Of a DNA stretch of 64,000 bases, positions 3,608 through 49,379 are shown one piece after another; position 1 is the first letter of the stretch, and every line of letters starts with the position of its first letter. The position numbers and the translations under genes are program-made. The notes beneath the pieces are model-generated. The model ran no database searches, was not told the DNA's origin, and saw only the letters and a list, made by a program, of their open reading frames with translations. This stretch comes from Roseibacillus sp. Its GTDB lineage: Bacteria > Verrucomicrobiota > Verrucomicrobiia > Verrucomicrobiales > Akkermansiaceae. The stretch lies in contig CBDEUM010000014.1 in the NCBI GenBank assembly GCA_965242925.1, forward strand, positions 581,848-645,847, written 5' to 3'.

Positions 3608-3612
3608 CGTTC

Positions 3613-9325: not shown

Positions 9326-10474
9326 ATGAAGTCCCCTTGGATCCTCCGCGTCCTCGCCCTCGTCGGGTTGACAATCTGCGGATATCTCGGGGCCCTCAAA
9401 TTCACCGGGCAGACGACCTCCATCGTGGGCTGTGGCGCCGGATCCGGCTGCAGTAACGTCCTCGGCTCGGAGTGGTCCCAGTTCCTTGGTGTTCCCGTCA
9501 GTGTCCTCGCCGGGGTCGTTTACCTCGCGCTGCTCATCACCACCTGGCGGCCCTCCCGTCCCCTCTACGGGGCTTTCGCCATCTGCCTCACCGGCGCCGC
9601 ACTCTGGTTCATCGGTCTGCTGTATTTCACCATTAAGGCGGTCTGTCCCTGGTGCCTCGCCATGCACACGATCGGCATCCTCTCCTCCATCGTCCTGGTA
9701 CTTTCTCTAACCCAGCTCCCGACCACCAATCCCAGGACTCCCCTTCGCTTCGCCCCCCTGGGGGCCATTACCGCCCTCCTGGTCCTCGCGCTGGGCCAGC
9801 TCCTTGGTCCCAAGCCGGACACCCACGCCCGGACCACCGAGGTGGTGCGTGATGCAGACCAGGGGAAGAGAGCCGAGGGCCGGGTGGTCTCCTTCTTCAA
9901 GGGCCGCAAACACTACAATGCGGTGACCATGCCTCACCTCGGCCCCTCCGGCGCGAAGCATGTCATGGTGAAGTATTTCGACTACACCTGCAGCTCGTGC
10001 CGGGAGATGCATGAGCATCTCCATTTCGTGACGGAGTCACACCCGGACACCTTCTGCATCATCCTTCTCCCGGTCCCCCTCAACCGCGCCTGCAATCCCT
10101 TCTTTCCTACCGACCTCACCAATCACGATCATGCCTGTGAACTGGCCCGCCTGAGCCTCGCCGCGTGGCGGGCCAATCCGGACCGCTGGCCCGAGGTCCA
10201 TGAGCAGCTCTTCTCCCGCCCGGTTCTCCCGCCGGAAGTGGCCGAGGCCGCGGTGGGACAGATCGTCGGCTACGATGAACTGGCCGGGGCCCTGGAGGAT
10301 CCCTGGATCAATCAGATCCTCCAGACCGGCATCAACGATTTCAAACAGATGATCTTCCGCACCCGTGCCATGCCAAAACTGGTCGTCGGTGATGACGAGG
10401 TCCTGCACGGTGCGCCCCGCTCCAGGGAAGTTCTGCTCGGAAATCTTGAGCAGCTCTACCGGCTCAGTGAGTAG
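9326..10474 (+). CDS. VKOR family protein fused to a DsbA/thioredoxin domain
   Basis: GCGAGSGCSNVLGSEWS loop cysteines, TM helices, CPWC; C-terminal YFDYTCSSC thioredoxin-like motif. Confidence 0.88.
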   Translation: MKSPWILRVLALVGLTICGYLGALKFTGQTTSIVGCGAGSGCSNVLGSEWSQFLGVPVSVLAGVVYLALLITTWRPSRPLYGAFAICLTGAALWFIGLLYFTIKAVCPWCLAMHTIGILSSIVLVLSLTQLPTTNPRTPLRFAPLGAITALLVLALGQLLGPKPDTHARTTEVVRDADQGKRAEGRVVSFFKGRKHYNAVTMPHLGPSGAKHVMVKYFDYTCSSCREMHEHLHFVTESHPDTFCIILLPVPLNRACNPFFPTDLTNHDHACELARLSLAAWRANPDRWPEVHEQLFSRPVLPPEVAEAAVGQIVGYDELAGALEDPWINQILQTGINDFKQMIFRTRAMPKLVVGDDEVLHGAPRSREVLLGNLEQLYRLSE

Positions 10475-12176: not shown

Positions 12177-12605
12177 TCAAGGATCACAGGGGCTACTCCC
12201 TCCCGGAGAGCGTTCCAACCTCAGGGGTTTTCCTTCCGGCATCTGGACCAGGGCAAGTTGTTGCCGGCAGGTGATAAGGAGGGCCCCGTCCTCGGGCCGC
12301 CGCATTTCGAAGGCACACCAGAAGCGAACCCGCCCCCAGTCGTCGAGCCAGCCCCGGGTCTCCAGCAAATCCCCCAGTCGGCCAGGCCTGCGGTAATCGA
12401 TCTCGGTCCGCACCACCACGGGATAGACCTGGGTCTGTGCCATGCTCCGCAGGTCAAATCCCAGTTGCCCCGCCAGCCTGGTCCGGCACCTCTCAATCAT
12501 CCGCAGGTAGGCGAGGTTATGGACGACGCCCCCGGCATCGGTGTCGTAAAACATCACTTCATCCTGGGTGCGCTCCTCGGGACGAATACCATCCGGCTCA
12601 GCCAT
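12177..12605 (-). CDS. Acyl-CoA thioesterase (4HBT/YbgC family)
   Basis: YDTDAGGVVHNLAYLRMIE hotdog-fold motif; start taken at ATG 12605. Confidence 0.88.
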   Translation of the reverse strand: MAEPDGIRPEERTQDEVMFYDTDAGGVVHNLAYLRMIERCRTRLAGQLGFDLRSMAQTQVYPVVVRTEIDYRRPGRLGDLLETRGWLDDWGRVRFWCAFEMRRPEDGALLITCRQQLALVQMPEGKPLRLERSPGGSSPCDP

Positions 12606-12717
12606 GACGGAAATGTAGCGGACGAAAGAGCGAGGCACAGAGCAATCCGCCCTCCCGCGTTCTTCCCCGGAGCCAAAGGGTTGCGTCGGGTCTGGCCATG
12701 AGAGAGACTTCCGCCGC

Positions 12718-14484
12718 ATGCGCGCGTGCTCTCTGGTCCTCCTGTTCCACCTGCTTACGCCCTCCCTGTGGGCGGATGTCTACATGGGCCCGGACCCGGC
12801 CGCCGCTCTCTTCCGGCGGGACAGGATCCCCATCGACACGGACACCATGCGGGAGCTCTCCCGGCACCTCACTGACCTGGCTCGCCGCGAAATGGTTCGG
12901 GATTCCATCCAGTTGCGGGCCACCGCCCAGTTGCTCGCCATCGCCATGCGTCTCGATCCCGCCAACCGGCCGGCCCGTGAGATCGACAAGGCCCTCAGAG
13001 AAGAACGACCGGTTGATCCCCTTAAGGGCGACATCAATGACCCGCTGCGCCAGACTTGGGGTATCGCCGACTGGCTCGTCGACCCCGAAGCGGGCAAAGC
13101 AGGCGGTCGTCTCGGCCACCAGATCATCGACGCCCTCGCTGTGATCAATCCCCGGAGCCCCCTCGCCAAGCTCCATGATCCGAAAGGTGAGCCCGATCGC
13201 TGGCAGAATGTGGTTCAGCCCCTCGCGGCCTACCGCCGGAGCCCGGAACCGGAAAAGGCTCCCGACCCCCCACAGCCGGAGCCCCCGCCCATCGAACGTC
13301 CCCCCATCCTGCTCCGCCAGGCCAGCACACAGACACCTCTCTTTCTCTACGACAAGGATCTCCGTCGACACCTGCGCCTCGTGACGCTTCAGATGCAGGT
13401 CGAGGAGCTGGCTCAACCCGATCCTTTCTCCTTCTCCCTCCTGCCCGCCATCGAGTCCCCCGACATCGATTCCGCCCGCATCGAGGCCCGGAAGCTCCTT
13501 GAGAAAAGCTGGCCCAATCTTCCCATCAGGTACATCGCCCGGATCTCGACGGGCAAGGAACGCTATGCCTCCAAGAACGAGCAGGCCATCTCGGGCCCGG
13601 CCGCACTCCTCATGCATGCCGCCCTGGCCGACAAACAACTTCGCCCTGATGTCATCTTCGTGGGCGAGTTGACGCCCGATGGCAACCTGACCAGACCACG
13701 CCAGAGCTGGGACTACCTGCGGGCCCTGCGGGTCGCCGGGGGTGGCCGCCTCCTGGTGCCCGCCGATTTCGAGCCGGAGCTGCGAGCCATGATCGCGCTG
13801 GAGGATCCCGCCTTCTTCCTGCGCTGGGAGGTCCTCATCGTAAACTCACTTGAAGTCGCCCTGAGCCTGGCTGCCGTGAACGGAGACCCCGAGGGACTGG
13901 CGGTCACTTCCGCGCTTTATACCGAGCTCCGCGAGGTGAGCCGGAACAAGGACGTGGGCCAGCTCTGTGTGAACGCCAAGGTGCGCGAACGCTTGACAGA
14001 AATCGTCAGCAAGGCGCCCTTTCACTGCTCCGCCAGGATGCTCCTCACCCAGGGAAATGCCGCAGAACGGCCCACCCGGGTGGAGCGGGAAGTGGCCGCC
14101 CGCATCCTGCGCAGTGCCGTCGAGCCCCTGAGCGGGATCGTTCGCCCTCCCCTTTCCCAGCTCAGCGTGAAGCGCCTTATCACCACCGGGGAGGCCTCAG
14201 GTGCCGAGATCGAGCGCTTCGCCAAGTTCATTTCTCCCACGGAACGGGATTTGGTGAAAGAGGCGCGGGAGATCGCGCAGCTGGCCGAAGCCCTGGGCCG
14301 GGGCAAACGCGACGGTGACCTGAGGGAGGGCGTGGTTTACTATCGCAAAATTCCCCTTCCAGACTACCATCATGATCTGCAGACGAGGTTTTCAGCTTAC
14401 CTCAGGAAACTCGCCCCCTTTACCCGAGAAACCATCCGGGACGATCCGCCTGCCGATCCTGCCAAAGCACAGAAAATCCCCTGA
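12718..14484 (+). CDS. Exported protein with degenerate Lon (S16) protease-like domain
   Basis: Resembles the downstream gene; AISGPAALLMHAAL...FVGELTPDG aligns to the Lon C-domain but lacks the catalytic Ser and Lys. Confidence 0.6.
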   Translation: MRACSLVLLFHLLTPSLWADVYMGPDPAAALFRRDRIPIDTDTMRELSRHLTDLARREMVRDSIQLRATAQLLAIAMRLDPANRPAREIDKALREERPVDPLKGDINDPLRQTWGIADWLVDPEAGKAGGRLGHQIIDALAVINPRSPLAKLHDPKGEPDRWQNVVQPLAAYRRSPEPEKAPDPPQPEPPPIERPPILLRQASTQTPLFLYDKDLRRHLRLVTLQMQVEELAQPDPFSFSLLPAIESPDIDSARIEARKLLEKSWPNLPIRYIARISTGKERYASKNEQAISGPAALLMHAALADKQLRPDVIFVGELTPDGNLTRPRQSWDYLRALRVAGGGRLLVPADFEPELRAMIALEDPAFFLRWEVLIVNSLEVALSLAAVNGDPEGLAVTSALYTELREVSRNKDVGQLCVNAKVRERLTEIVSKAPFHCSARMLLTQGNAAERPTRVEREVAARILRSAVEPLSGIVRPPLSQLSVKRLITTGEASGAEIERFAKFISPTERDLVKEAREIAQLAEALGRGKRDGDLREGVVYYRKIPLPDYHHDLQTRFSAYLRKLAPFTRETIRDDPPADPAKAQKIP

Positions 14485-16474: not shown

Positions 16475-17920
16475 CTACGCCAGAATCTCCTTCACCACCT
16501 TGCCGTGTACGTCGGTGAGACGGAAATCCCGTCCCGAGTACCGGTAGGTCAGCTTCTCGTGATCAAAGCCGAGAAGGTGGAGGATGGTGGCCTGCAGGTC
16601 GTGGACGTGGACGGGATTCTCCTCGGCCTGAAACCCATAGGGGTCCGTAGTCCCATGCACATGGCCCCCCTTCACTCCTCCGCCCGCAAGCCAGACCGTG
16701 AACCCATAATGGTTGTGGTCGCGGCCGTTGATCTTGCCGGCATTGGAGCCTTTCTTGGGCATCTCCACAGTGGGAGTCCGCCCGAACTCTCCGCCCCACA
16801 TGACCAGGGTCTCCTCCAGAAGGCCCCGCATCTTGAGGTCCTTGAGGAGAGCTGCAATGGGCTGATCGCATTCCCTTGACAGTTTCCTGTGATTCTTTTC
16901 CAGGTCGTCATGATTGTCCCAGGGTTGTCCCGCTCCGTGCCAGACCTGCACGAAGCGCACCCCGCGTTCGATGAGCCGCCGCGTAATGAGCATCTGCCGC
17001 GCCTGGGTTCCGCTGCCGTACATCTTCCGGATCTCTTCCGGTTCCCTGCTGATATCAAAGGCATCGGTCGCCTCCATCTGCATTCGGTAGGCCAGCTCAA
17101 AGGACTGCAGGCGGGCTTCCAGCCGTGCGTCATGACTTCTTTGCCTCTGATGGTCCTCATTCATCGCCCGCAAAAGATCGAGTTGGCGTCGTTGTTCACT
17201 GTCTCCCATCCCGCTCTCAATGTGTTCCACCAGTTTTTTCGGATCGGAGTGACTGGTATCCACGTAGGTCCCCTGGAAGGCCCCCGGCAGGAAGGCCGAC
17301 TGCCAGTTCTGCGTTTCCTGAATGGGATAGCCGCCCGGACACATGGCCACGAACCCCGGTAGATTCTGGTTTTCCGAGCCCAGCCCGTAGGTGACCCAGG
17401 AGCCCATCGCCGGGCGCACCAGGCGCCCGTCCCCACAATTCATCAAAAGCAGGGAGGGTTCATGGTTGGGCACATCGGCATGCATCGAACGGATCACACA
17501 GAGCTCATCCGCCATGCTGCCGACCTGCGGAAAGAGGTCGGAGACTTCCAGCCCGCACCGCCCCCTCCTCGTAAATCCGAAGGGCGACTTGAAGGCCGCT
17601 CCCGTGGGCCGTTCCGTCTTGAGCATCTTGGGCAACTCCTGGCCATGCAGCTTCGTGAGTTCCGGCTTGGGATCAAAGGTGTCGAGATGGGAAGGCCCCC
17701 CGTTCATGAAGAGATGAATGACGGCCTTGGCCTTGCCGGGAAACTGCGGTCTGCGCGGAGCAAGTGGGTTGAGGTCCAGGCCGGAGCCCTTCCCCTCCTC
17801 CGCGGCCACCAGCCCGGGAACACCATTCAGGGCCACCGCCGCCATCCCCATCCCGGCGCGCGACAGCATCTGTCGCCTGGTCAGGAAGAGGTGCTCTGGA
17901 TTGAACGCGTGATGTGGCAT
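16475..17920 (-). CDS. DUF1501 family protein (Tat signal)
   Basis: TRRQML, LFMNGGPSHLDTFDPKP, GEFGRTP, GRDHN; start taken at ATG 17920. Confidence 0.9.
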   Translation of the reverse strand: MPHHAFNPEHLFLTRRQMLSRAGMGMAAVALNGVPGLVAAEEGKGSGLDLNPLAPRRPQFPGKAKAVIHLFMNGGPSHLDTFDPKPELTKLHGQELPKMLKTERPTGAAFKSPFGFTRRGRCGLEVSDLFPQVGSMADELCVIRSMHADVPNHEPSLLLMNCGDGRLVRPAMGSWVTYGLGSENQNLPGFVAMCPGGYPIQETQNWQSAFLPGAFQGTYVDTSHSDPKKLVEHIESGMGDSEQRRQLDLLRAMNEDHQRQRSHDARLEARLQSFELAYRMQMEATDAFDISREPEEIRKMYGSGTQARQMLITRRLIERGVRFVQVWHGAGQPWDNHDDLEKNHRKLSRECDQPIAALLKDLKMRGLLEETLVMWGGEFGRTPTVEMPKKGSNAGKINGRDHNHYGFTVWLAGGGVKGGHVHGTTDPYGFQAEENPVHVHDLQATILHLLGFDHEKLTYRYSGRDFRLTDVHGKVVKEILA

Positions 17921-17952
17921 CTTCTTCCCCTCTGGATCAGCAGGACGTCGCG

Positions 17953-20436
17953 TCAGTCCACATAAAGAAATTCGTTGGAAAGAAGCAATACTTGAGCGAG
18001 CAACGACCACCGCTCAAGGGCCGGGCCCGAGAAGCCCGCCTGCGCCTCGGCCAGGGGCAGCTTCACCCCTTTCTCCAGAATGACCGGGGCCCAATGAAAA
18101 CTATCCCAAGCCTCCTCCCCGGTCGATTCAACGAGGAAGTCCACGCTCTCCCCGGCGGCAACCTGCAAGGTGAGTTCGGTCCCTGATTTTTCTCCGGGCT
18201 CTACCCTCCATTTCCCTAGGATCTTGTTGCGCGCCACGATCAGGCCACGCACTGCATCCCCTTTCCTGGTGGGCCGCGCCAACTCCCCGGAAACCCGGAT
18301 CGTCGCGTTTTTGGGCGCCACCCAGCGCAGGATGGCCGCATGGTCTCCGTGCCCCGGGTGCCCCCCGGCAGCGTGCCAGTGGACCCAGCCGGTCTTCTGG
18401 TCAGGGAGTTCCGGTCCGCCCTGCCAGACCTTGCCTGTGAAATGTGGAAGGGGGTGAAACTCAACCCGTCCCGAGTCCCGATGAACCCGCCCGTGGCCAT
18501 AGCTCCAGGCTCCTGCGCTCTGCTGCATCCCCGCCCCCGCACTGCCGAGAAACCGCTGGGCCCGGGCCAGCTCGCCCGGAGAGGGGACCCGCTGGAGAGC
18601 CCGAAGATAGAGCGCCACGATCCGGGCCTTCTCGTCCTGATGAGAGGCCGTGGCCGCCGCGGTCGCCTTCGCCTCCCCATGGAGAAAGGGGCTGTTCATG
18701 AGATAGAGGGCCTGGTTGGGGGTAGTGGTGGCGGACCTCTTTACCACCGGCTGGCTGGAATCAGGAAAGTCGAAGATGCGGAAGAAGGAAGGCGTGTTCT
18801 GCCGTTCGATCAATCCGTAGATGGTACGCCGTCCTGGAAATGGCGCCTCATGAATCCTGGCCGGGCGGCCACCCAGCTTCCGGTCGAGTCGGCCACTTGC
18901 CTGCAAGGTGGTGTCGCGCCAGGATTCAAGGTCCTTCCGGTGCCTGTTACCGCGGGTATAGTAGCGGTTCTCCGGATCATGTTCGTTCAGCTTGTCGTCC
19001 GCAAAACTGCTGTGGCGCCACGCCCGAGAGGTCATGATATGGCGCACGAGGGCCTTGATGGACCAATCGTGGTTGCGGAGATAGTGGGCCAGATGATCGA
19101 GGAGCTCCGCTTGCAGGGGGAGCTGGGCCTGCATTCCGAAATCTCCAGGGGTGCTCACCAGAGGCGATCCCATCACGTGCATCCAGACCCGGTTGGCGCA
19201 AACCCGGGCGGTGAGGGGATTGTCCGGCCTGGTCAGTTCCTGCGCCAGTTCAAGTCTTCCACTGCCCTTCTCAAAAGCGCGATCCGGGGCGTCGCGGAAG
19301 AAGGCGGGAAAGGCCCGCGGAACCTTCGCCCCCCGGTTTCCCTGCTGTCCGCGCTCGAAAATCACCGGTTCGCGGGGATTGGGCCGATCCCTTACTGCCA
19401 TGGCCCGCAAGGGGGCATATTCCGATTTTCCTTCCAGCTCATCGAGCTTGGCTACAAGCCCCCGATAGTCTCCGCTCTCACTTTGATTAAGTTTTTTGAG
19501 AGCTGCCTTGCGATCGAATTTGAGCGGATCAGCAGGCCGTTTATACCCCTTGATCTTTCCGGCCGCGTAGTCATGGACGGCGTTGGCGCGCTTGATGAGC
19601 TCCTCCCGGAACTTGCGGTAGCCGGGTGAGTCCTCCGGCGTGCTTATAATCGGTAACTCCCCCTCGGGAACTTCCTCGGTACTGTCGAAGACCCCGTAAA
19701 TCCCGTAGTAGTCTGCCATGGTGAGCGGATCGCTCTTGTGATCATGGCAACGCACGCACTGCATGGTAATCCCCATTGTGCTGCGGAAGGTGACGTCAAT
19801 ACGGTCCGCGATGATAAGGGCGTGCTGGTTGAGGTAGCGCCGGCCAAGGGTGAGAAAGCCGAGGGCGGCCTGTTCGCGCACGGGGACATCCATCAGATCG
19901 GCCGCGATCTGGCGCCGCAGGAACTCGTCATAGGGCAGATCCTCGTTGAGCGAGCGCACCACCCAGTCCCGGTAGGTGAAGGCGAAGGGAAAGAGCCGCC
20001 CAGCGGTGAAGTTGTAACCCTTGGTATCCGCATAGCGCGCCACGTCGAGCCAGTGGCGGGCCCAGCGTTCCCCGAAGTGCGGAGAAGTCAGTGCCTCATC
20101 GACGATTCGCGCGCTCCATGCCGGCAGCGTCCCCCCCTGCGGCGCCAAGGCCCGCGCTCGAAGGTCGGGATCCGCCTGCAGGCCGGTGATCACATGCCAC
20201 GCACGGCGGAGAAGAACTTCGCGCGAAGCCTCCGGGACAGGGGAGAGATTCCGTTCCCGCTGCCGGATGGCAAGCAGCTCGTCGATGGGGTGCCCCTTCC
20301 CCGAGAGCGTCGCCCGGGCGAGAGACTGGAATGCCCAGTGCGAGCTGGCCTCATCGAGCGACACCCCCCCCGGCGCGGTGATTGGAAGAAGCACCGCGAT
20401 CCCTAGGAAAACAAGGGCAGGGACTCGCACAGTCAT
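17953..20436 (-). CDS. DUF1549/DUF1553 domain protein with C-terminal inserted domain
   Basis: HWAF, FGERWARHWLDVARYAD, CVRCHDHK, SNEFLYVD; signal peptide. Confidence 0.9.
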   Translation of the reverse strand: MTVRVPALVFLGIAVLLPITAPGGVSLDEASSHWAFQSLARATLSGKGHPIDELLAIRQRERNLSPVPEASREVLLRRAWHVITGLQADPDLRARALAPQGGTLPAWSARIVDEALTSPHFGERWARHWLDVARYADTKGYNFTAGRLFPFAFTYRDWVVRSLNEDLPYDEFLRRQIAADLMDVPVREQAALGFLTLGRRYLNQHALIIADRIDVTFRSTMGITMQCVRCHDHKSDPLTMADYYGIYGVFDSTEEVPEGELPIISTPEDSPGYRKFREELIKRANAVHDYAAGKIKGYKRPADPLKFDRKAALKKLNQSESGDYRGLVAKLDELEGKSEYAPLRAMAVRDRPNPREPVIFERGQQGNRGAKVPRAFPAFFRDAPDRAFEKGSGRLELAQELTRPDNPLTARVCANRVWMHVMGSPLVSTPGDFGMQAQLPLQAELLDHLAHYLRNHDWSIKALVRHIMTSRAWRHSSFADDKLNEHDPENRYYTRGNRHRKDLESWRDTTLQASGRLDRKLGGRPARIHEAPFPGRRTIYGLIERQNTPSFFRIFDFPDSSQPVVKRSATTTPNQALYLMNSPFLHGEAKATAAATASHQDEKARIVALYLRALQRVPSPGELARAQRFLGSAGAGMQQSAGAWSYGHGRVHRDSGRVEFHPLPHFTGKVWQGGPELPDQKTGWVHWHAAGGHPGHGDHAAILRWVAPKNATIRVSGELARPTRKGDAVRGLIVARNKILGKWRVEPGEKSGTELTLQVAAGESVDFLVESTGEEAWDSFHWAPVILEKGVKLPLAEAQAGFSGPALERWSLLAQVLLLSNEFLYVD

Positions 20437-20510
20437 TCGAAGTTACGCCCAGAAAATGCCTGCCCTTTCTCCTTTTCGCAAGAGCAACCGATTGCGCCGC
20501 CAGGGAGAGC

Positions 20511-21740
20511 CTAGAAGGATCTGTTGAAAGAGAGCATTAATCCGTGGAACCGCGACCTGTAGTCGCCCGCCACCAGATTGCCTCCGTCCGCTGCCGCTGT
20601 TCTATCCCGGACCGTGCGGTCTGAGAACGCATATTGATAAGCAACGTCGACGGTCCAGTCTTCCGCCGTGTAGCTCACCCCTGCGCTCAGCCAATGACGG
20701 TCGGCATCCGCAATTGCAGGATTGAAGTTTAGATCCGGTTGACTGTTCTCAATGAAGATGTAGCCCGCGTTGAAGGCCCAGGTCCTGTTGGGCGCGTAGG
20801 TCATCCCGATGCCATACATGAAATTTGATTCCCAGTTAAATGGCAATGGAGTGTCGGGAGAAAAGGCTTGCCGCAGCGTTGACGTAGCGAGTCGTTTCCA
20901 GTTCACCCATTCCACATTGGCTTCGATGGTCCAATGGTTATCCGGCCGGAAGGCATACCCGACAACCAGCGTATCCGGAGTGACGAGGTCCAGCGACGCC
21001 CGGCCATTGGGGAGCCCTACGGCGGGAGCGCCCCCGGAACCCTCCAGGTCGAGATCCGTCTTGGCACGATAGGTCACGCCAAAGGAGTGCTGCTGATGCG
21101 GATTCCAGAGGAGGGACGCGATCCAGTTGGCCGCTACGTCGTCGCCCTTGAATTCAAACTCAGCACCCGGAGCAAGCTGGGGTGCCGCCAACTGTTTAAG
21201 AGTCCCATCAGCATAAGTCACCCCGATGCCGCCCCCGATCGAGAGGCTGTCGCTCAGCTCATACGCCAGGACTCCCCACGCGGTGGCATACTTGAGGTCT
21301 GTCTCGGTCGCCACCGCTCCGAACGGCGTCGACGCGCCCCAGTCCGTTCGCAATCCGAAGGGCGCATTCAGACCAACCCCGACGGCCAGGCTGTCGTTGA
21401 GGGGAGCCGCCACATAGAGCTGGGGGACCGGGATGAACTCCGCATCGTTCTCGTGAGTCAGTCCATCGATATCAGTCTCCGCCTCAATTCCGAGCCGCAC
21501 GGCATAGACGCCGGCATGAACCGCGAGGGAATCCAACTGCGTCAAGCCGGCAGGATTATAATAAATGGCAGATGGCCGGTCGGCAGTTGCCACGAAGGCA
21601 TTTCCCCGCGAGGCCGCAAAGGGATCCTGCACAGGAATATAAAATCCGTTAGCCCGGAGATCGGGTTGACCAGACACCAGCAGGGCCGCGGTCAGCACAC
21701 CTGCGGGAGTCCGGAGGTTCTTAATTTTTGGGAGGTTCAT
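20511..21740 (-). CDS. OmpP1/FadL/TodX family outer-membrane channel
   Basis: NGFY hatch start, AIYYNPAGL motif, APFGL, C-terminal amphipathic strand ending in F. Confidence 0.9.
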   Translation of the reverse strand: MNLPKIKNLRTPAGVLTAALLVSGQPDLRANGFYIPVQDPFAASRGNAFVATADRPSAIYYNPAGLTQLDSLAVHAGVYAVRLGIEAETDIDGLTHENDAEFIPVPQLYVAAPLNDSLAVGVGLNAPFGLRTDWGASTPFGAVATETDLKYATAWGVLAYELSDSLSIGGGIGVTYADGTLKQLAAPQLAPGAEFEFKGDDVAANWIASLLWNPHQQHSFGVTYRAKTDLDLEGSGGAPAVGLPNGRASLDLVTPDTLVVGYAFRPDNHWTIEANVEWVNWKRLATSTLRQAFSPDTPLPFNWESNFMYGIGMTYAPNRTWAFNAGYIFIENSQPDLNFNPAIADADRHWLSAGVSYTAEDWTVDVAYQYAFSDRTVRDRTAAADGGNLVAGDYRSRFHGLMLSFNRSF

Positions 21741-21767
21741 GTCTAGGGGTATGAGCTTGGATTGATC

Positions 21768-22142
21768 TTATTGGGAATCAAAGATGGTGTGTTCCTCGGT
21801 GAGGAAGATCGAAGATCGGGAGAGATCGCAGAAGGTGGCCTCATCCTCAATGAGTTTCTCGTGGGCCGCTGCCCCTTCCGGGGTTTGCATGGCGCCCAAC
21901 AGTTCCTCATGAGAATTCCACCAGATCTCGGTAATCCCATCGAAAGGCCCGGAGGCGCCCCGGCCCCCTTGTGCAATCTCGTTGAGGGGGGACTCCAGAA
22001 GGTGGCTCTGGACGTATCGCTGCGCCTTCAGGGCCCCCGCAAAACTCTGCACCAGCGGCCCGTGATTGTCCTTCCAGTAGCGATAAAATTCTTCCGGGGG
22101 CATCCCGGCCTTCCGATGGACACAGTAAACAAGTTTAATCAT
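21768..22142 (-). CDS. EthD domain protein
   Basis: MIKLVYCVHRKAGM..EEFYRYWKDNHGPL, FDGITEIWW, DEATFCD. Confidence 0.88.
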   Translation of the reverse strand: MIKLVYCVHRKAGMPPEEFYRYWKDNHGPLVQSFAGALKAQRYVQSHLLESPLNEIAQGGRGASGPFDGITEIWWNSHEELLGAMQTPEGAAAHEKLIEDEATFCDLSRSSIFLTEEHTIFDSQ

Positions 22143-22187
22143 TTCGATGGAGGTTGAATGAGGTTATTGGGGTTCAGGGTTGTCCTG

Positions 22188-23390
22188 CTACTCGACGAAG
22201 CGCGACCAGAAGAGTTCGTTGCCCACCAGATCGGCTGCCAGTTCCTCAAACGGGTCATCGGGCGCCCGTTCAATCCGCGACACGTCGAATCCGATCCGCA
22301 ACCGCGCTTCGGTCCGGTTCGGTTCGGGGAGAAAGTCGATCACTCCCCCATGATGAGTGATGCGCATGCAGGCTCCTATGAGATCGAGGGCATGTCTGGA
22401 GGGCTCCTCTGCACTGGCGCTCATGGCGGGCGCGAGCACGGACCGCACCGGGCGCCCCGGAAAGATCAGTTCAAGGCCCGACAGGCACTCCTCCAGACGA
22501 ACCATGCCTTCTCCCTCCACTACTTTTGCGAGGGCGCTAATAAAAGGGCCGATTACGCCCTGAAGATCGCTCAGGGGCCCCGGCCAATCCGGCGGATTGG
22601 CCCGCGCCTCGCCCCACTCCAGGGCGGGACTTCCCTCCACCGCGGGCTTGAGGGCCTCCCCCACCGTGCAGCGGAGTTCAAAGTCCAGTCCCGCGGGACT
22701 GGTGAGGTCGGATGGCAGGGACGTATTGACCGCGCCGAGAAATGACAGGTGCCGCCGATAGAGCTCGCGCCACGAGAGCCCCTCGGATCCGATCGACTCG
22801 GGCACCGGCTTCTCATGGGGCTCTTCCGAGAGGCGGACGATCGCCCTGAGAGCCTCTCCAACGTGGCGGATTCCGGCCTCACGGAAGATGGCCAGGGCCG
22901 CAAGGCACACGATGCGATCTGAGGCCGCCAGCATATCCACACTCATCATCTTCTGGCGCACCAGTTCCTCTCGCTCGAGACGCACCAGGTAAAGTTCCAT
23001 GGCCCGCTTGAGAGTGACCTCCAGTTCGGGAACCTCCCAGGGCTTGGTTACATAACGGTAAATCCCGCCCTTGTTGACAGAAGAAACGGCGGCATCAATG
23101 TCCGCGTAGGCCGTGGAAAGAATGCGCACCACCCCAGGCTTGAGAAGGGCGACCTTTTCAAGGAATTCGCTTCCGGTTTCATTCGGCATCCGCTGGTCGG
23201 TCACCACCACGCCAATCTCGTCCTGGTATTCGCGGAATCGTTCCAGGCCCGCTACCCCGTCTTCGGCAAGAACAATGCGGAACGTCTTGCCGAAGAGCTT
23301 GGCGAAGTACTTGCGGGTTCGTTGTTCATCATCAACGAAAAGAACAACGTGTTGCCGGTAATCTGGCGTTTGCAGGCTCATTTCTTCCAA
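22188..23390 (-). CDS. Response regulator, PhcQ-like (REC plus degenerate kinase-like C-terminus)
   Basis: VLFVDDE, VTDQRMP, STAY, YVTKPW; overlaps the kinase gene. Confidence 0.8.
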   Translation of the reverse strand: MEEMSLQTPDYRQHVVLFVDDEQRTRKYFAKLFGKTFRIVLAEDGVAGLERFREYQDEIGVVVTDQRMPNETGSEFLEKVALLKPGVVRILSTAYADIDAAVSSVNKGGIYRYVTKPWEVPELEVTLKRAMELYLVRLEREELVRQKMMSVDMLAASDRIVCLAALAIFREAGIRHVGEALRAIVRLSEEPHEKPVPESIGSEGLSWRELYRRHLSFLGAVNTSLPSDLTSPAGLDFELRCTVGEALKPAVEGSPALEWGEARANPPDWPGPLSDLQGVIGPFISALAKVVEGEGMVRLEECLSGLELIFPGRPVRSVLAPAMSASAEEPSRHALDLIGACMRITHHGGVIDFLPEPNRTEARLRIGFDVSRIERAPDDPFEELAADLVGNELFWSRFVE

Positions 23391-26206
23391 GCTTCTTCAA
23401 GTTCAACCGCGTCAGGGCGGGTCTCGTGCCGGGGCGGGGGACCCGGCTCCGGATCTTCGTCCTCCATTTCGCATCCGGAGTCTGCTTGCCCCTGCCAGGG
23501 CTGTGGAATCATGACGCTGAATACGGTGAAGTTCCCCGGATCGCTTTCGACCTCAATCCTCCCATCGTGCGATTCCAGGATCCGGTGACAGATGCTCAGC
23601 CCCAGACCCATTCCCTCGCCAACATCCCGCTTCGTAAAGAAGGGATCGAAAATGTGGTCCATGTCCTCGGGATCGATTCCCGGCCCGTTGTCCCGCACCC
23701 GGATACAAACGTCCTGTTCCCCTTCCCGTTCGGAGGAGACCTCGATCTGAGGCTGGCCCCCTTGCGCTCTCGCCCCCTCCAGAGCCTGGGCAGAATTCTG
23801 GATGATGTTGACCAGGACCTGGCAGAGCTGATTGCCATTGCCGCTGACCCTGTGGTCCTCCGACACATCCACTTTAAACTCAATGCCCTGCAGCTCGTCG
23901 GCCAAAAGCCGGCGTGCATTCTCGACTGCTTCCCTGACGACTACTTCCTCCTTCATGGCAACCTCGCCCTTGGTGAAGGAGCGCAGGTCGCTGACAATCC
24001 GGATCACCCGGCCCACGCCCTCCTCGGCATCCGCAACGGTTTCCTCGAAATCAGCCCGTTCGCCTTCGGCCACATCCTCGGCGTACATCCTCAGGGCATG
24101 CAGTGCCGTCTTTACATAATTCATCGGATTGTTGACCTCGTGCACGATCCCCGCGCTCATCCGCCCGAGCGAGGACAGGGTTTCCGCCTGCAGCAGCCGG
24201 GCTTCGTTCTCCTTGATCTCATCCAGAGCAACATCACGCTCTTCCACCGCCACTCGCAACTCCTGGTTGATGATGCCCAGTTCCCGCTGGTACTTCTGCC
24301 TGTCGAGAAGGTTGCGAATCCTGAGACGAAGCTCTGCGGTCGTGAAAGGCTTGGTGAGGAAATCACTCACCCCCGCCTCCAGAGCCTGGATCCTCGGAGT
24401 TTCATCCGCCGCCGCGGTCACCAGCAGGATCGGAACCTGGGATGTCAGGTTGTTCTGGCGCAGGCGTTGCGTCAGGGTGATGCCATCCATCTCCGGCATC
24501 ATGTAGTCAAGAATGATCAACTGGGGCTGGAACTGCTGGGCCCGTTTCCACGCCTCCAATCCATCACAGGCCTCGACCACGCCGCAACCCATCTCCTCCA
24601 CCTCTTCCTTCAGGAAACGCCGCAACCCGTTCTCGTCCTCCGCGATGAGAACCAGTTCCTTATTGGCGGAGCCTTCCGCGCCGGGGACCCCCGTGACGGC
24701 CGGGTCGAGGAGCGAGGGAGCGCTGTCCATGGTGCCCAGCGCTCCCCTGATGCGGGCCCTGTTGTGGATCTCGGTCAGCGGATCCTCCTCGTCTGACACC
24801 TCGGTTTCAGAGTTGCCGGGTGACACCAGGAGAGGGACGGAAATGGTAAACTTCGTCCCTTTTCCGTACTCGCTCTCGATTTCGATCGCGCCATCCATCG
24901 ATTCGGTCAGGCTCTTCACCAAGGCTAGGCCGATCCCGACCCCGTGGTGCTTCTTGGCCGCGGAGGTATCAGCCTGCCAGAATCGCTCGAAGGCCGAATT
25001 GACCTGGTCCTCCTTCATCCCCGCGCCATTATCGGCCACCTTGAGGATCAATCGTCCACTTTCAAGTCCCGCGGAGAGAGAGACCTCCCCGCCGGTCGGG
25101 GTGAACTTGAGGGCATTTACCGCGAGGTTGAGAACAATCTTCTCCAGGCGATCGCGATCGAGATACACTTCCTCCTCTTCGCCGCAGGCCGCGTTCCAGC
25201 CAAGGTTGATCCGCTTCCGGTCAGCCATGGGCTGAAGGTTGCGGCCGAGCCCATCAATGAACGTGAACGGGCGGAAACACTCCGGTCGCATCGGCATGTC
25301 GCCACTGTCCATGCGCACGAGGTCGAGGATGTCATTGATGAGACGGAGGAGCCTCATGCCGTTGTCCTCCAGGCCCTCCACCAGTTCAGCAAGCTGGGCA
25401 TCGTTGCGCACCGCGTTCAGGTTGTGCATCTTCTCGATAGGCGCGAGAATGAGCGTGAGCGGGGTGCGGAGCTCATGGCTGATATTGGCGAAGAACCTGG
25501 TCTTTGCCTCGTCGAGATCCTGGAGTTTACGGTGGTTTTCCGCCAGTTCCTCCTGCTGAGCCACTACCTCCTCCCGCAGACAGAACTCGGCGAATCGAAG
25601 CCGGTTATAAAAATAGAGGCCGATGCATACAAACGCTGCCGTGACGAACAGAAAAAAGAGCGCAATGGTAATGTTCTCGACGCTGCTTTCCGTTCCGAAA
25701 GCGACTCCCAGATAGCCGACGATGCAGAGCAGGGAGTTGATCAGTCCATCGACACACCTCCATCGCAGGAGCAAAACCGCACCAACCATAACCAGATTGA
25801 GCCCCGCGTAGTACGGCGAGCCGCCCCCTCCGGTTTCCACCAGCATTCCGTGGATTGTCACCATCGGGATCAGCGCAACAAGATGGCCAAGGAGGTGAAG
25901 GATCCGACGCGACCCGCTGCGAACCCGATAGAGAAGAAATAACACGAAGAGCAATCCGGAGGAACAGGCCATGCGCAGCATGAACAGTCTGCCCACCACC
26001 CCCTCATAGCCCGGGGTGGAAGAATCCCCAAAGGCCACCAGGTCCATGCCCGCCCCGAGGGCGATGAACAAGGCCGCCAGAAACGCCCCCCGCCGATAGT
26101 TCAGCAGGCGGACCTCGTCCTCCTGGACCTCGAACCGCTCCTGCAACGACATCGGTTTCCTCTCGTCGGCCCCGGGGGCTGCTGCCGTTGTATCAGATCC
26201 CGTCAT
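23378..26206 (-). CDS. Membrane hybrid sensor kinase (TM-HisKA-HATPase-REC-HisKA-HATPase)
   Basis: Multi-TM N-terminus; SHELRTPL; NALKF, DNGAGM, GIGL; AEDE..LDYMMP..TKPF; HEVNNPM; DNGPGI, GMGLGL. Confidence 0.93.
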   Translation of the reverse strand: MTGSDTTAAAPGADERKPMSLQERFEVQEDEVRLLNYRRGAFLAALFIALGAGMDLVAFGDSSTPGYEGVVGRLFMLRMACSSGLLFVLFLLYRVRSGSRRILHLLGHLVALIPMVTIHGMLVETGGGGSPYYAGLNLVMVGAVLLLRWRCVDGLINSLLCIVGYLGVAFGTESSVENITIALFFLFVTAAFVCIGLYFYNRLRFAEFCLREEVVAQQEELAENHRKLQDLDEAKTRFFANISHELRTPLTLILAPIEKMHNLNAVRNDAQLAELVEGLEDNGMRLLRLINDILDLVRMDSGDMPMRPECFRPFTFIDGLGRNLQPMADRKRINLGWNAACGEEEEVYLDRDRLEKIVLNLAVNALKFTPTGGEVSLSAGLESGRLILKVADNGAGMKEDQVNSAFERFWQADTSAAKKHHGVGIGLALVKSLTESMDGAIEIESEYGKGTKFTISVPLLVSPGNSETEVSDEEDPLTEIHNRARIRGALGTMDSAPSLLDPAVTGVPGAEGSANKELVLIAEDENGLRRFLKEEVEEMGCGVVEACDGLEAWKRAQQFQPQLIILDYMMPEMDGITLTQRLRQNNLTSQVPILLVTAAADETPRIQALEAGVSDFLTKPFTTAELRLRIRNLLDRQKYQRELGIINQELRVAVEERDVALDEIKENEARLLQAETLSSLGRMSAGIVHEVNNPMNYVKTALHALRMYAEDVAEGERADFEETVADAEEGVGRVIRIVSDLRSFTKGEVAMKEEVVVREAVENARRLLADELQGIEFKVDVSEDHRVSGNGNQLCQVLVNIIQNSAQALEGARAQGGQPQIEVSSEREGEQDVCIRVRDNGPGIDPEDMDHIFDPFFTKRDVGEGMGLGLSICHRILESHDGRIEVESDPGNFTVFSVMIPQPWQGQADSGCEMEDEDPEPGPPPRHETRPDAVELEEAWKK

Positions 26207-27626
26207 GGTCCTCTTTTTTCCGAACCTCGAGGAAGAGGTTCACTCCCGTTTCATCCCGGTTCAGGGAAGTCTCGAACTGGCCCCCGTTAAGGGGGGCTAT
26301 CTCCATCATGGCCGCGTCATCGCGGTAGATCAGGTTCCACTCCAGGACGAACTCCATCCAGGCGCGGCTGGGGTTGGTGTCGCTGACGTTGGTCACCAGC
26401 ATGAGCCCTCCCGGGGCCAGGAGCCGGGCGAACAGATCATTGAGACGGCGGCAGACCCTCTGCGAAAGGTAGTCGAAGAGTCCCGAACAGTAGACCATGT
26501 CGAACGACTCCCACTTCAAATCCACGTCTCCGGTGGAGGCCTGCCGCAGGAGCTTGTGGACGGAGCGCTGGAGCATGGAGATGGGCGTAACCCGGCCCGC
26601 CTGGGTCCGCACTCTGGCGAGCTCCTTCTGGGTATACTCGATAGTCTCCGCGTTGAAATCCAGAAGCGTGATGTCACAGAGATCGCTCAGCTCTTCGTTC
26701 TCCAGGAACTGCTTGACCTCGTGGGCGGGGCCACACCCGAGGTTCAGGATTCGGGTGCGGCGTCCCTTCATCGCATTGCGCTCCGCCTCGGCCCGGAGCT
26801 TGGTGGTGAGGTAGTGAATGCGGTTGCGGTGTGCCACCACCGGTGCGGTCTGCAGGAAGGCGTGGTTGATGAGCTTGGCGAAGAGGGAGCCCCCTTCATA
26901 GGGATCGCGGACCATCATGTTCACCATCTCGTAGTCGCCCGCATAGCCGAGCGGCTTATGGAAGGAGCGATAGGTGAAGGGCGAACAGAGCACCAGGGGA
27001 TGGATTTGCCGCCGAACATAAAACTTGTGGGTGGCTTCCCGGCCCTCCGGAATTTCCCGCACTGCTTCCTCGAAATCTCCCATCGCGCCCTGCATCTCTT
27101 CCAGAATCCGCTCCTGCAGCTGATCGATTATTTCCCGTTCCAGGGTCGGACGGTCAATCGAGGTGGTGGCCCGGATTCCAAGATCGATCTGCTCCATCCA
27201 ACGCTGCAGGCCAATGAGGAGATTCTGCATGTCGGCTACCGTCAGCTTGAAGGACAAGTCGACCTCGTGCGCCCGCTTCCAGTCCTGCACGAAGGTATCG
27301 AACTGGTCGGTCAGAGGGTCCCGGCCTTCCCGGTCCGACAAAAAATCAACGTCCAGCCAGGCGTTCCCCAGGGTGGCCTCACAAACCAGGAGAATCCCCG
27401 TGTTTACGAGCCCAGTAACCACCGCTTCGCCCTGATATACCACCCGATCTCCTACGCGAATCCTGAAGTCTCGTAAAACTTCAGAAAGTTGCAGGATGCT
27501 GTAAGGATTATAGATTTCAAAGGCTACTGAGTAACGGCGCAACCTCAGGATATTGGCCGTAATCTCGGACCCCTGGCTGTTACGACAGACGACAACACTA
27601 GTGAGAAGGGAAGATCCTTTCTGCAT
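26193..27626 (-). CDS. Class I SAM-dependent methyltransferase, PhcB-like
   Basis: N-terminal RNSQG..EIYNPYSI.Q.SEVL, KPLGYAGDYEMVN, AHRNRI, LNLGCGPA, GLFDYL. These motifs recall Ralstonia PhcB (from memory). Confidence 0.8.
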   Translation of the reverse strand: MQKGSSLLTSVVVCRNSQGSEITANILRLRRYSVAFEIYNPYSILQLSEVLRDFRIRVGDRVVYQGEAVVTGLVNTGILLVCEATLGNAWLDVDFLSDREGRDPLTDQFDTFVQDWKRAHEVDLSFKLTVADMQNLLIGLQRWMEQIDLGIRATTSIDRPTLEREIIDQLQERILEEMQGAMGDFEEAVREIPEGREATHKFYVRRQIHPLVLCSPFTYRSFHKPLGYAGDYEMVNMMVRDPYEGGSLFAKLINHAFLQTAPVVAHRNRIHYLTTKLRAEAERNAMKGRRTRILNLGCGPAHEVKQFLENEELSDLCDITLLDFNAETIEYTQKELARVRTQAGRVTPISMLQRSVHKLLRQASTGDVDLKWESFDMVYCSGLFDYLSQRVCRRLNDLFARLLAPGGLMLVTNVSDTNPSRAWMEFVLEWNLIYRDDAAMMEIAPLNGGQFETSLNRDETGVNLFLEVRKKEDHDGI

Positions 27627-27733
27627 TGACTAAGGGGCCGTGATCAAAAAAGCTGGCGAGGTAAGCATTGCATGATAAGCGCGCTTGCAAATATTTCTCT
27701 TGAACCTGACAATCATTAGTTCCGAATAGCCAG

Positions 27734-28111
27734 ATGGCCCAAGACTCCCCCAAGTTCAAGATTACCCGCGAAGGGCAGCGGTTCATCTGCCCGGACGGAC
27801 AGGATTTGCTCGAACTCGCCGAGGCTGAAGACTTCTCCGTCTCGGGGGTGGCCGAGTCTCTGGGCCTCACCAACCGGCAGTTGGAATACGCCGTCGAGCG
27901 AGCCTCCGGATTGCGCCCGAAAGAACTTTTCCGGCGTCACCGGATGCTCCTGGCCCGCCGCCTGGTCGCGGAAGGTTTCTCTCTCCAAGTGATCGCGCAG
28001 CGGCTGGGGTTCAAGCACTACACTCACTTCGCCTCCGAAGTTAAGTCCTACTTCGACCTGCCTCCGCGCCAGTTTCAGAAATCGGTGCGGGCCCTGTGCC
28101 CGGAAACCTAG
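27734..28111 (+). CDS. Stand-alone AraC-type HTH protein
   Basis: VAESLGLTNRQLE, IAQRLGFKHYTHFASEVKSYFDLPPRQF; no sensor domain; divergent from the phcB-like gene. Confidence 0.85.
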   Translation: MAQDSPKFKITREGQRFICPDGQDLLELAEAEDFSVSGVAESLGLTNRQLEYAVERASGLRPKELFRRHRMLLARRLVAEGFSLQVIAQRLGFKHYTHFASEVKSYFDLPPRQFQKSVRALCPET

Positions 28112-28280
28112 CGCCGGAGAAGCCGCTGGGGCTCCCGCTTGAGGAGAGGCCCTGCGGGGCAGCGGACGAACATTCATACGGTTCAGGGTTAACCCGAAGG
28201 AGCTTGCTTCTTGAAAGCCGGTATTGCCGTGCGCTCGGACCCTTGAGGCCTTCCCTCGAACAACTGCCATGACCAGGGAA

Positions 28281-28682
28281 TTACGCATCTAAGGATGATT
28301 GCTGGAAGGCCTGAGGCAACAGGACGGAGAGATCTACTTTTACACTCTGCTCTTTTCGGGGATCGATCAGGAGGAGCACCAAGCCCGGACTGAACTCGTG
28401 GAGAACCTGGCGGCAGGCCCCGCAGGGAGCGGGGGCTCCCGATGCGCAAATTGCAAGGACCTCAAAATCTCGCTCCCCTTCCGAAACCGCCTTGCCCAAG
28501 GCCACCCGTTCGGAACAGATCGTCAGACCATAGGACGCATTCTCAACGTTGCACCCAGTGAAGATGCGCCCGGAACGGGTCTGCAACGCAGACCCCACCC
28601 GGTAAGCCGAGTAGGGTGCGTAGGCCCGCTCCCGGGCCGCTTGGGCCGCTTCGATAAGGGCCCCCTCTTCGCCGCTGCTCAT
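28281..28682 (-). CDS. cdd: Cytidine deaminase
   Basis: AYAPYS, GCNVENASYGLTICSER, PCGACRQ. Confidence 0.95.
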   Translation of the reverse strand: MSSGEEGALIEAAQAARERAYAPYSAYRVGSALQTRSGRIFTGCNVENASYGLTICSERVALGKAVSEGERDFEVLAICASGAPAPCGACRQVLHEFSPGLVLLLIDPRKEQSVKVDLSVLLPQAFQQSSLDA

Positions 28683-44815: not shown

Positions 44816-44925
44816 GTCTCCCAACCCCAACCCGGGATCAACGCATCATTGACGGTGCGGGACGGGATTTCTATGCTGTCCAGCGACCAATCTGGATGTC
44901 GCCGCCCTCCGTGCGGGCCCGATTC

Positions 44926-47916: not shown

Positions 47917-47918
47917 CC

Positions 47919-49379
47919 ATGAGCGCTTCGCCTTACAGCAATGCCCGCTGGCTCGATCGCCGCGACTTCCTCGCGCACACCTCGAGCGGACTGGGGGCGA
48001 TGGCCTTGACGAGCCTCCTCGGCTCGGAGGGTCTCCTTGCCGCACAGGCGCCCTCCATCGATCCCTCCCAGCCGCACGCGCCGCGCCCCGGCCACTATCC
48101 GGGCAAGGCCAGAAACGTCCTCGTCATCTTCTGCGCCGGTGCGTGCAGCCAGCTCGAGACCTGGGATTACAAGCCCGAGCTCATTAAATATGACGGCAAA
48201 CCGCTTGAAGGCGGCCCGGCGGTGACGTTCCAGGGACCGTCCGGGAACCTTGCCCGGCCGCAGTACGAATTCCGGCCGCGCGGCGAGTGCGGCAAGATGG
48301 TCTCCGACATGGTTCCGCATCTCGGGGAGCTGGTCGACGAGATGGCCTTCGTCCACTCCCTGACCAGCAAGTCGAACACGCACGGCCCCGCCGAGAACTT
48401 CCTCTCCACCGGCTTTGTGCTGGATGGCTTTCCCAGCGTCGGGGCGTGGGTCACGTACGCGCTCGGGACCGCGAACCATGACCTTCCCGCCTTCGTGGCG
48501 ATTCCCGATCCGCGGGGCATCCCGCAGGCCAGCATCAACAACTGGGGACCGGGTTTCCTGCCCGCCGAGTTCCAGGGAACCGCCTTCAGCGCCAAGGACC
48601 CGATTCGCAACCTCGCGCGTCCCGAGGAGATTTCTCCCGCTCGCGACCAGGCGGCCCGCACGCTCCTGAAGGGACTGAACCGTGAACACCTGCAACGCCA
48701 TCCCAACGAGAGCGCGCTCGCGGCCCGCATCGCGAGTTACGAACTGGCGGCCCGCATGCAGCTCAGCGTCCCCCGGATCAGCGATCTTTCCTCCGAGCCC
48801 GACCACATTCTCAAGATGTACGGGGCGGACGATTCCAAGAACAAGCTCAAGGCCGGCTTCGCGCGCAATTGCATCCTCGCCCGACGCCTCCTCGAGAACG
48901 GCGTCCGCTTCGTGCAGCTCTTCAATGGCGCGTATGCCAGCGGCGGGGAGTTGAACTGGGACGGACACAAGGAGCTCCGCAAGCAGTACGACGTGCATGG
49001 CGCCATCATGGACCAGCCCGCCGCGGCCCTCCTGCGCGACCTGAAACAGCGCGGTCTGCTGGAAGACACCCTGGTGGTGTGGTGCACCGAATTCGGACGC
49101 ATGCCCATGTTCCAGAAGGGCGCAAAGGGCCGCGACCACAACCCTAACGGCTTCACCGCCTGGCTCGCCGGCGCCGGCGTGAAGGCGGGCGTGAGCCATG
49201 GCGCCACCGACGAACTCGGCTACCAGGCCGTCGAAAACGTCCTCTCTGTTCACGACCTCAACGCCACTATTCTCCACCTCCTCGGACTTGACCACGAGGC
49301 TCTCACCTTCAAACACAACGGCATCGAGCGCAGGCTCACCGATGTGCACGGGCACGTGATCAAGGAGATCCTGGCGTAG
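47919..49379 (+). CDS. DUF1501 family protein (Tat signal)
   Basis: [27 protein letters not shown]. Confidence 0.9.

Follow-up and report, generated by a model that had tools for sequence, protein, structure and literature searches.

In Ralstonia and Cupriavidus, the phcBSRQ genes form a signalling system in which PhcB makes methyl 3-hydroxymyristate (3-OH MAME) or methyl 3-hydroxypalmitate (3-OH PAME), and PhcS, PhcR and PhcQ sense this product and relay the signal, according to three accounts (PMC10653808, PMC11960443, PMC6989110). As described there, PhcR consists of a receiver and a kinase domain and PhcQ of a receiver followed by an uncharacterised C-terminus (PMC10653808, PMC6989110), the phospho-acceptor histidine of PhcS is H230 in strain OE1-1 (PMC11960443), and Phc signalling is treated in these papers as belonging to the Ralstonia solanacearum complex and its near relatives in the Betaproteobacteria. 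The DNA analysed here, a 64-kb stretch from Roseibacillus sp. of the phylum Verrucomicrobiota (the window), contains a cluster of genes for an S-adenosylmethionine (SAM)-dependent methyltransferase, a double kinase and a receiver protein, followed by genes for an EthD-domain protein and a FadL-family channel. Each of the three core proteins has homologues among the Phc proteins, their gene order is conserved, and FadL is repeatedly linked to them. An earlier reading of the letters of this DNA (the sequence-only reading) had proposed a Phc-like operon and knew of no such system characterised in Verrucomicrobiota; literature searches agree, having turned up no paper that describes a Phc-type system in Verrucomicrobiota or in another phylum outside the Proteobacteria, with papers in subscription journals known only through citations.

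LvrA and LvrB of Leptospira, a hybrid kinase and a hybrid response regulator with its own kinase domain, resemble the cluster in that a receiver-kinase protein is found downstream of a hybrid kinase; we know of no methyltransferase or PhcS-type sensor in the Lvr system. The Lqs/Cqs alpha-hydroxyketone quorum-sensing systems of Legionella and Vibrio combine the synthase of a hydrophobic, fatty-acid-derived signal with a six-transmembrane kinase that senses it within the membrane. Compared by description only, they differ in that their synthase is a pyridoxal phosphate (PLP)-dependent enzyme, unrelated to the methyltransferase of the window, in the account that describes the Lqs components LqsA, LqsS and LqsR (PMC10653808).

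Homology of the core genes to phcBSRQ

The sequence-only reading described three overlapping, co-oriented genes for a SAM methyltransferase, a hybrid kinase with multiple transmembrane (TM) segments and a receiver protein, and the open reading frames (ORFs), Pfam domains and hydropathy bear out this description. The methyltransferase and kinase ORFs overlap by 14 nucleotides (nt), and the stop of the kinase gene overlaps the start of the receiver gene by 4 nt (ATGA), or by 13 nt if the latter starts with TTG. The core features are as follows, with lengths and intervals in amino acids (aa):

26193-27626, minus strand, SAM methyltransferase ORF, 477 aa (ORF listing)
23378-26206, minus strand, double kinase ORF, 942 aa (ORF listing)
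25562-26206, minus strand, six-TM PhcS-type membrane sensor, kinase aa 1-215 (hydropathy and profile match)
24797-25561, minus strand, first kinase core (HK1), kinase aa 216-470 (Pfam HisKA aa 234-302, HATPase_c_2 aa 367-452)
24302-24661, minus strand, internal receiver, kinase aa 516-635 (Pfam Response_reg aa 519-630)
23492-24229, minus strand, second kinase core of PhcS type (HK2), kinase aa 660-905 (34% identity to the PhcS core)
22188-23390, minus strand, receiver-protein ORF, 400 aa (ORF listing)

NCBIfam has no curated PhcB model, the matches of the methyltransferase there being weak, generic and far below cut-off, and authentic Phc sequences were therefore needed for testing. A search of plasmid proteins found one full-length relative of the methyltransferase, on a plasmid of Paraburkholderia graminis, where its gene is followed by those of a kinase, a short response regulator and a response regulator. 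With the P. graminis methyltransferase as bait in named genomes, 80 loci were obtained from Paraburkholderia, Cupriavidus, Ralstonia and Oxalobacteraceae. R. solanacearum is not among them, and comparisons were made with orthologues such as those of Ralstonia pickettii (L049; reference loci are L-numbered throughout), in which phcB, phcS, phcR and phcQ were assigned from gene order and protein length (463, 453, 377 and 333 aa), and in which the domain content agrees with that published for PhcR (receiver and kinase) and PhcQ (receiver and uncharacterised C-terminus). Reciprocal searches against PhcB, PhcS, PhcR and PhcQ, which the sequence-only reading had put forward as a check, were all positive, and the cluster is thus homologous to phcBSRQ, not just similar to it in domains.

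The methyltransferase (aa 8-467) matches R. pickettii PhcB (aa 7-459) with 41% identity (E 2e-118) and a Paraburkholderia homologue with 40% identity. Pfam class I SAM methyltransferase domains are recognised at aa 290-415 of the 477-aa protein, and the match to PhcB also takes in the ~280 aa that precede this domain, an N-terminal part which is specific to the family and which no Pfam model covers. The three motifs that the sequence-only reading likened to PhcB (EIYNPYSI, KPLGYAGDYEMVN and AHRNRI) are all common to the window methyltransferase and R. pickettii PhcB, and are aligned; in the window protein EIYNPYSI stands at aa 37, KPLGYAGDY at aa 224 and AHRNR at aa 265, and the SAM-binding motifs GCGP, LLDF and GLFDY are retained. 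The relationship is reciprocal, with a single match in the window's genome and a single match, at phcB, in that of R. pickettii. Automatic annotation at JGI gives many relatives the name 'extracellular factor (EF) 3-hydroxypalmitic acid methyl ester biosynthesis protein'.

An AlphaFold model of the methyltransferase, built on 60 family members, has a mean predicted local distance difference test score (pLDDT) of 92.2 and a predicted template-modelling score of 0.90, and predicts an N-terminal beta-barrel (aa 10-86), a helical domain (aa 105-286) and a Rossmann methyltransferase domain (aa 291-470). Foldseek searches with this model retrieved an uncharacterised Bordetella protein (3ocj) and assorted small-molecule C-, O- and N-methyltransferases, with no close solved relative and no protein methyltransferase among the listed top matches. 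A PilZ identity of the N-terminal beta-barrel was considered and rejected, since none of the 60 family members matches PilZ at E<=0.01 and no relevant Pfam match appears even at E<=10; weak CheR-type matches occur in 16 of the 60. As leads only, remoter look-alike clusters in the Atlas carry PilZ in 10-84% of their members, and the methyltransferase family may extend to other phyla, such look-alike clusters being commonest in Myxococcota, Bdellovibrionota and Nitrospirota.

The 942-aa kinase contains two HisKA/HATPase_c stretches and one Response_reg domain according to Pfam, no family of which covers its sensor domain. A hydropathy scan places six hydrophobic segments within aa 39-203, in a domain that is membrane-embedded and almost loop-free. 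Profiles of 13 Verrucomicrobial sensor domains and of 10 Burkholderiales PhcS N-terminal domains align in hhalign over 189 columns (E 1.5e-38, probability 99.95-100%), with the motifs LDY.VYP and WMI...G..SPYYAGLNL in common. HK1 has H244 in SHELRTP, together with DNGAG and GVGIGL in HATPase_c, and is only ~22% identical to the PhcS core; HK2 has H689 in HEVNNP, which aligns with the H-box of PhcS, together with DNGPG and GEGMGL, and is 34% identical to the kinase core of R. pickettii PhcS (E 3e-47). The phospho-acceptor and ATP-binding motifs are intact in both cores, as are the receiver aspartates. A PhcS query finds its two best matches in the window's genome within this one protein, the better being HK2 (35%, E 4e-44) and the other the TM domain with HK1 (26%, E 4e-24). 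The internal receiver matches just one of 81 Burkholderiales phc loci at E<=1e-3, and nothing in L049, and is therefore not of the PhcR/PhcQ type. Nowhere in the 14 related genomes (see below) was the simple PhcS layout found, in which the sensor is joined directly to one core; HK1 and the receiver intervene in all of them. As far as these alignments go, the kinase is most simply described as a sensor and a core, both of PhcS type, that are separated by the insertion of a conventional kinase-receiver module.

A different mapping of this protein, as PhcS fused to PhcR, was prompted by a locus in which the kinase is split (L106), and was rejected as the best one because the internal receiver has so few matches among the Burkholderiales loci and none in L049, because HK2 is closest to the PhcS core and not to PhcR, and because the separate receiver protein aligns full-length with PhcR. 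LvrA is the best-scoring NCBIfam model for the kinase, with 267 bits, far under the family cut-off of 1200 bits. After the proteins of the operon, the best matches to the PhcS core (E 8e-23) and to PhcQ (E 2.6e-6) in the window's genome are a second kinase and receiver, encoded side by side outside the window (G000:C12:134472-135745).

The 400-aa receiver protein is recognised by Pfam as Response_reg at aa 16-125 only, with D65 in TDQRMP. Its aa 16-166 are 40% identical to PhcQ (E 1e-34), and a PhcQ query in the window's genome finds this protein at E 1.6e-30, the next match being at 2.6e-6; conversely, the receiver protein finds PhcQ (3.9e-30) and PhcR (7.5e-23) in R. pickettii, with unrelated receivers at 1e-11 or weaker. 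The profile of the receiver-protein family aligns with PhcR over 347 columns, which is full length (E 2.4e-44); its hhalign alignment with PhcQ (E 4e-48) ends after 174 columns and covers receiver and linker only, and the C-terminal domain of PhcQ has no homologous counterpart in the family by this method. One reference row, L078, was dropped from the alignments. Relatives in L101, L103, L104 and L110 keep receiver, HisKA and HATPase_c domains by Pfam; in the window protein the H-box histidine and the G1 box (DNGPG) are gone and an HHGG remnant survives. It is taken to be PhcR-like in descent and PhcQ-like in state, because the alignment with PhcR is full-length and the kinase domain is degenerate. 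After the receiver, the structural model predicts helices and an alpha/beta region at low confidence. The only near-full-length match that Foldseek listed for it is LvrB (8vc9, receiver and kinase), which extends over ~410 columns with a template-modelling score of ~0.33 and a root-mean-square deviation of ~21 A, the model being poor there; the other matches are mainly or only to the receiver domain.

Conservation, accessory genes and host

A full-length methyltransferase is present in 14 of 400 other sampled Verrucomicrobiota genomes, spread over several families, and was not found in 28 sampled genomes of one genus within the window's own family. The TM-HK1-receiver-HK2 kinase directly follows the methyltransferase in all 14, and a receiver protein of the PhcR/PhcQ type comes next in 12 (L105 and L106 being without). 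In L106 (10389-13106) the kinase is split into a TM-HisKA-HATPase protein of 485 aa and a receiver-HisKA-HATPase protein of 395 aa, giving a layout that is outwardly phcB-phcS-phcR. Five loci from two families (L107, L108, L109, L111 and L112) have two or three PhcR/PhcQ-type receiver proteins in tandem (~354-437 aa), a paralogue expansion like that of PhcR and PhcQ in Ralstonia, and across Verrucomicrobiota the receiver proteins vary between an intact receiver-kinase form and a degenerate one in which only the receiver domain is detectable, as in PhcQ. The same arrangement was found in metagenomes, where the best 80 of 583 confirmed relatives (43-100% identity) were scanned: among loci with at least 3 kb of downstream flank, the TM domain and HK1 follow in 41/41 and the internal receiver and HK2 in 40/41, and the receiver protein follows in 34 of the 35 with at least 4.3 kb.

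The receiver gene is separated by 45 nt from the EthD gene, and this by 27 nt from the FadL gene, all being co-oriented; the operon probably extends through both, past the receiver gene and the interval given by the sequence-only reading. A small AraC-type gene diverges from the methyltransferase gene at the other end:

21768-22142, minus strand, EthD-domain protein, 124 aa (Pfam EthD, E 1.6e-20)
20511-21740, minus strand, FadL/TodX-family outer-membrane channel for hydrophobic compounds, 409 aa (Pfam Toluene_X, E 8.5e-59)
27734-28111, plus strand, small AraC/MarA-type helix-turn-helix (HTH) protein, 125 aa (Pfam HTH_18, E 2.6e-17)
27627-27733, no strand assigned, 107-bp divergent intergenic region, putative promoter/operator (palindrome read from the sequence)

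FadL is the sole PF03349 match in the 4.58-Mb genome (89.9% complete), and its closest named NCBIfam model is E. coli FadL. A FadL gene lies within 9 kb of the operon in 5 of the 14 related genomes and nearby in 15 of the 26 metagenome loci with adequate flanks on both sides, in four arrangements: the gene is downstream, with either the same or the opposite orientation, or it is upstream, either directly and in the same direction or divergently. EthD is found beside the operon in L110 and in 9 of the 80 metagenome loci, and homologues of the AraC gene at the operon in L099, L100 and 17 of the 80, the metagenomic occurrences of both being mostly in the window's own clade. None of the three was matched in the 81 Burkholderiales loci with the window proteins as queries. 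The AraC-type HTH protein, encoded divergently from the methyltransferase, is a candidate regulator or output, and the divergent region contains a perfect 10-bp palindrome, AAGCGCGCTT, flanked by TTGCA...TGCAA, which is a possible operator. A sigma-70 consensus scan of 20000-28600 revealed no promoter-like site, and the three terminator-like sites found are below chance expectation. At 12177-12719, some 8 kb away from the operon, is a gene for a 4HBT-type thioesterase, whose link to a supply of free hydroxy fatty acids would be speculative.

The nearest named relatives of the methyltransferase are in Roseibacillus sp. assemblies (97-98% identity), and three pairs of DUF1549/DUF1553 (PSCyt2/PSD1) and DUF1501 genes, which are typical of genomes of the Planctomycetes-Verrucomicrobia-Chlamydiae group, are found within the 64-kb window (2213-5727, 16475-20436 and 44896-49379); on these grounds the host is a marine Verrucomicrobium. 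One of the pairs is directly downstream of FadL, and a PSCyt-type gene is near the L110 operon too. Leaving aside the study that may be its source, 10 studies have marine or seawater metagenome runs with near-identical DNA (84-99% of sampled words). In four studies, contigs assembled from RNA libraries (95-99+% alike) span 25-30 of 30 bins across 20500-27750 and take in every one of the five genes; the methyltransferase/kinase junction is bridged by three contigs and the EthD/FadL junction by one. These contigs are a weak hint of expression, as they show presence in an RNA library and not transcription or a single transcript. No contig extends for 31 letters or more both before and after the kinase/receiver junction, an absence that carries no evidential weight, nor do the stretches left uncovered in single runs.

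Set against phcBSRQ, the cluster begins alike, with a PhcB-family methyltransferase homologous over its full length, continues with a kinase that has a homologous six-TM sensor and a PhcS-type core, and has in third place a receiver protein of the PhcR/PhcQ receiver subfamily, in overlapping genes of the same order. Unlike phcBSRQ, it has its sensor separated from the PhcS-type core by an HK1-receiver module, a single receiver protein, degenerate in its kinase domain, in place of PhcR and PhcQ, and attached genes for EthD, FadL and the small AraC protein; it belongs to a marine Verrucomicrobium, and its methyltransferase falls outside the Burkholderiales clade. Pfam matched no LysR-type (PhcA-like) gene in the 49 window ORFs that were scanned, and a PhcA orthologue was not sought elsewhere in the genome. 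The proposal of a Phc-like operon holds as to gene organisation and as to homology, which goes beyond domain content, but the relay, with its inserted module and single receiver protein, is no copy of that of Ralstonia.

Proposed mechanism and alternative readings

With moderate confidence, the cluster is read as a Phc-type cell-cell signalling operon with wiring of its own, for which we infer the chemistry, the dependence on cell density, the phosphoryl flow and the output. The methyltransferase would draw on SAM to turn a fatty-acid-like carboxylate, in analogy to PhcB a 3-hydroxy fatty acid, into a hydrophobic and diffusible methyl ester. This ester would cross the outer membrane, probably through the co-encoded FadL, and would meet its sensor, the six-TM PhcS-type domain of the 942-aa kinase, within the inner membrane. 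The signal would then be relayed from HK1 to the internal receiver, from there to the PhcS-type HK2, and on to the PhcR-like receiver protein, whose degenerate kinase domain would probably work by protein-protein contact, possibly with the small AraC-type regulator. The latter is a candidate for the output, and EthD may modify the signal.

Several observations weigh against this reading. In a FastTree tree of 122 rows, from which representatives outside 430-530 aa were left out, the methyltransferase branches in a clade apart from that of PhcB, within a large family (617 clusters at 50% identity with E<=1e-30, mostly of ~470 aa). The 14 named proteobacterial sequences, nearly all from Burkholderiales, form one group (support 99 ignoring unlabelled rows, of which one lies inside it); the window methyltransferase is outside this PhcB clade, together with two genomes of the same family and unlabelled rows, and Verrucomicrobial sequences occupy at least five separate places among the unlabelled rows. 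The backbone of the tree is poorly resolved, with 47 of 119 forks open, and because placement is scattered and unresolved in this way, PhcB function is not transferable as strict orthology; at ~40% identity to PhcB, the substrate may differ. To these points are added the degeneracy of the kinase-like domain of the receiver protein, where the structural model is poor as well (pLDDT ~50-70), the lack of a PhcA-like LysR gene among the scanned window ORFs, the fact that the RNA-library contigs are no proof of transcription, and a FadL that fits the uptake of outside fatty acids equally well.

The last of these points leads to another account of the whole operon, which we regard as unlikely, though as the likeliest of the alternatives: it would sense and handle long-chain or hydroxy fatty acids from outside, for example from algae or lysed cells, which FadL would import, the kinase would sense, and the methyltransferase, with EthD, would convert to methyl esters, less harmful or volatile. 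Uptake is the best-known role of the FadL family, whose E. coli member is the closest named NCBIfam model for the window protein; the gene is tightly linked to the operon, and the want of any match to it in the 81 Burkholderiales phc loci (with the window FadL as query) means that the Verrucomicrobial system may do a different job. Yet the methyltransferase and the sensor are homologous to a proven pair of synthase and receptor, a detoxifying enzyme would need no dedicated three-stage relay conserved in 41/41 loci, and 11 of the 26 well-flanked loci are without a nearby FadL.

It is a little less probable again that the methyltransferase acts on some other small metabolite, or on a protein or lipid carboxylate, with the two-component genes regulating or responding to it and the likeness to Phc being evolutionary only. 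The size and depth of the family, the position of its Verrucomicrobial members outside the characterised clade and the weak CheR-type matches would suit such a substrate, as would, as a lead only, the PilZ domains of remote Atlas relatives; but the closest structures are small-molecule methyltransferases, with no protein methyltransferase among the listed top matches, PilZ is matched in none of the 60 family members at the threshold given above, and the near-loopless membrane sensor and the link with FadL point to a hydrophobic ligand. That the genes are chance neighbours and no functional unit deserves hardly any credence: the reading frames overlap, and the arrangement is not due to chance because the methyltransferase is followed by the kinase in 14/14 genomes and 41/41 metagenome loci across several families, a synteny that already contradicts the notion.

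A Phc-type signalling operon accordingly remains the preferred reading, and the cluster suggests, from its sequence, that fatty-acid methyl-ester signalling reaches beyond Betaproteobacteria. More tentatively, and with rather less confidence than is placed in the operon itself, methyl-ester signalling of the PhcB/PhcS type may be an old and widespread chemical language, of which marine and soil Verrucomicrobiota would have a version marked by a kinase cascade of three stages and by a dedicated FadL as its gate in the outer membrane; if true, the phylum would thereby have its first defined quorum-sensing system. What is new here is the different relay architecture, the FadL/EthD accessory set and the occurrence in a phylum for which no described Phc-type system was found, the PhcB function name on JGI relatives being already known. 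Should the system work as we infer, it would provide a concrete and testable quorum-sensing system for a phylum with none found described, a relay of new design, running from the sensor through a kinase, a receiver and another kinase to a receiver-pseudokinase protein, and a FadL channel genetically tied to the passage of a lipid-like signal. The Verrucomicrobial receiver proteins are a natural comparison for questions about the roles of PhcR and PhcQ in Ralstonia.

Variation among the Burkholderiales loci

PhcR is cut to its receiver domain (~125-134 aa) in four Paraburkholderia loci (L001:10736-11140; L002, L019 and L025 around 9754-10131), and in L019 a fragment resembling the C-terminus of PhcR follows the shortened gene, which suggests an internal deletion. 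The 6.8-kb contig of L016, from an assembly labelled Rhodanobacter sp., encodes a methyltransferase that is 90% identical to that of Paraburkholderia and groups with Paraburkholderia in the tree, and that may be due to a binning error or to recent transfer.

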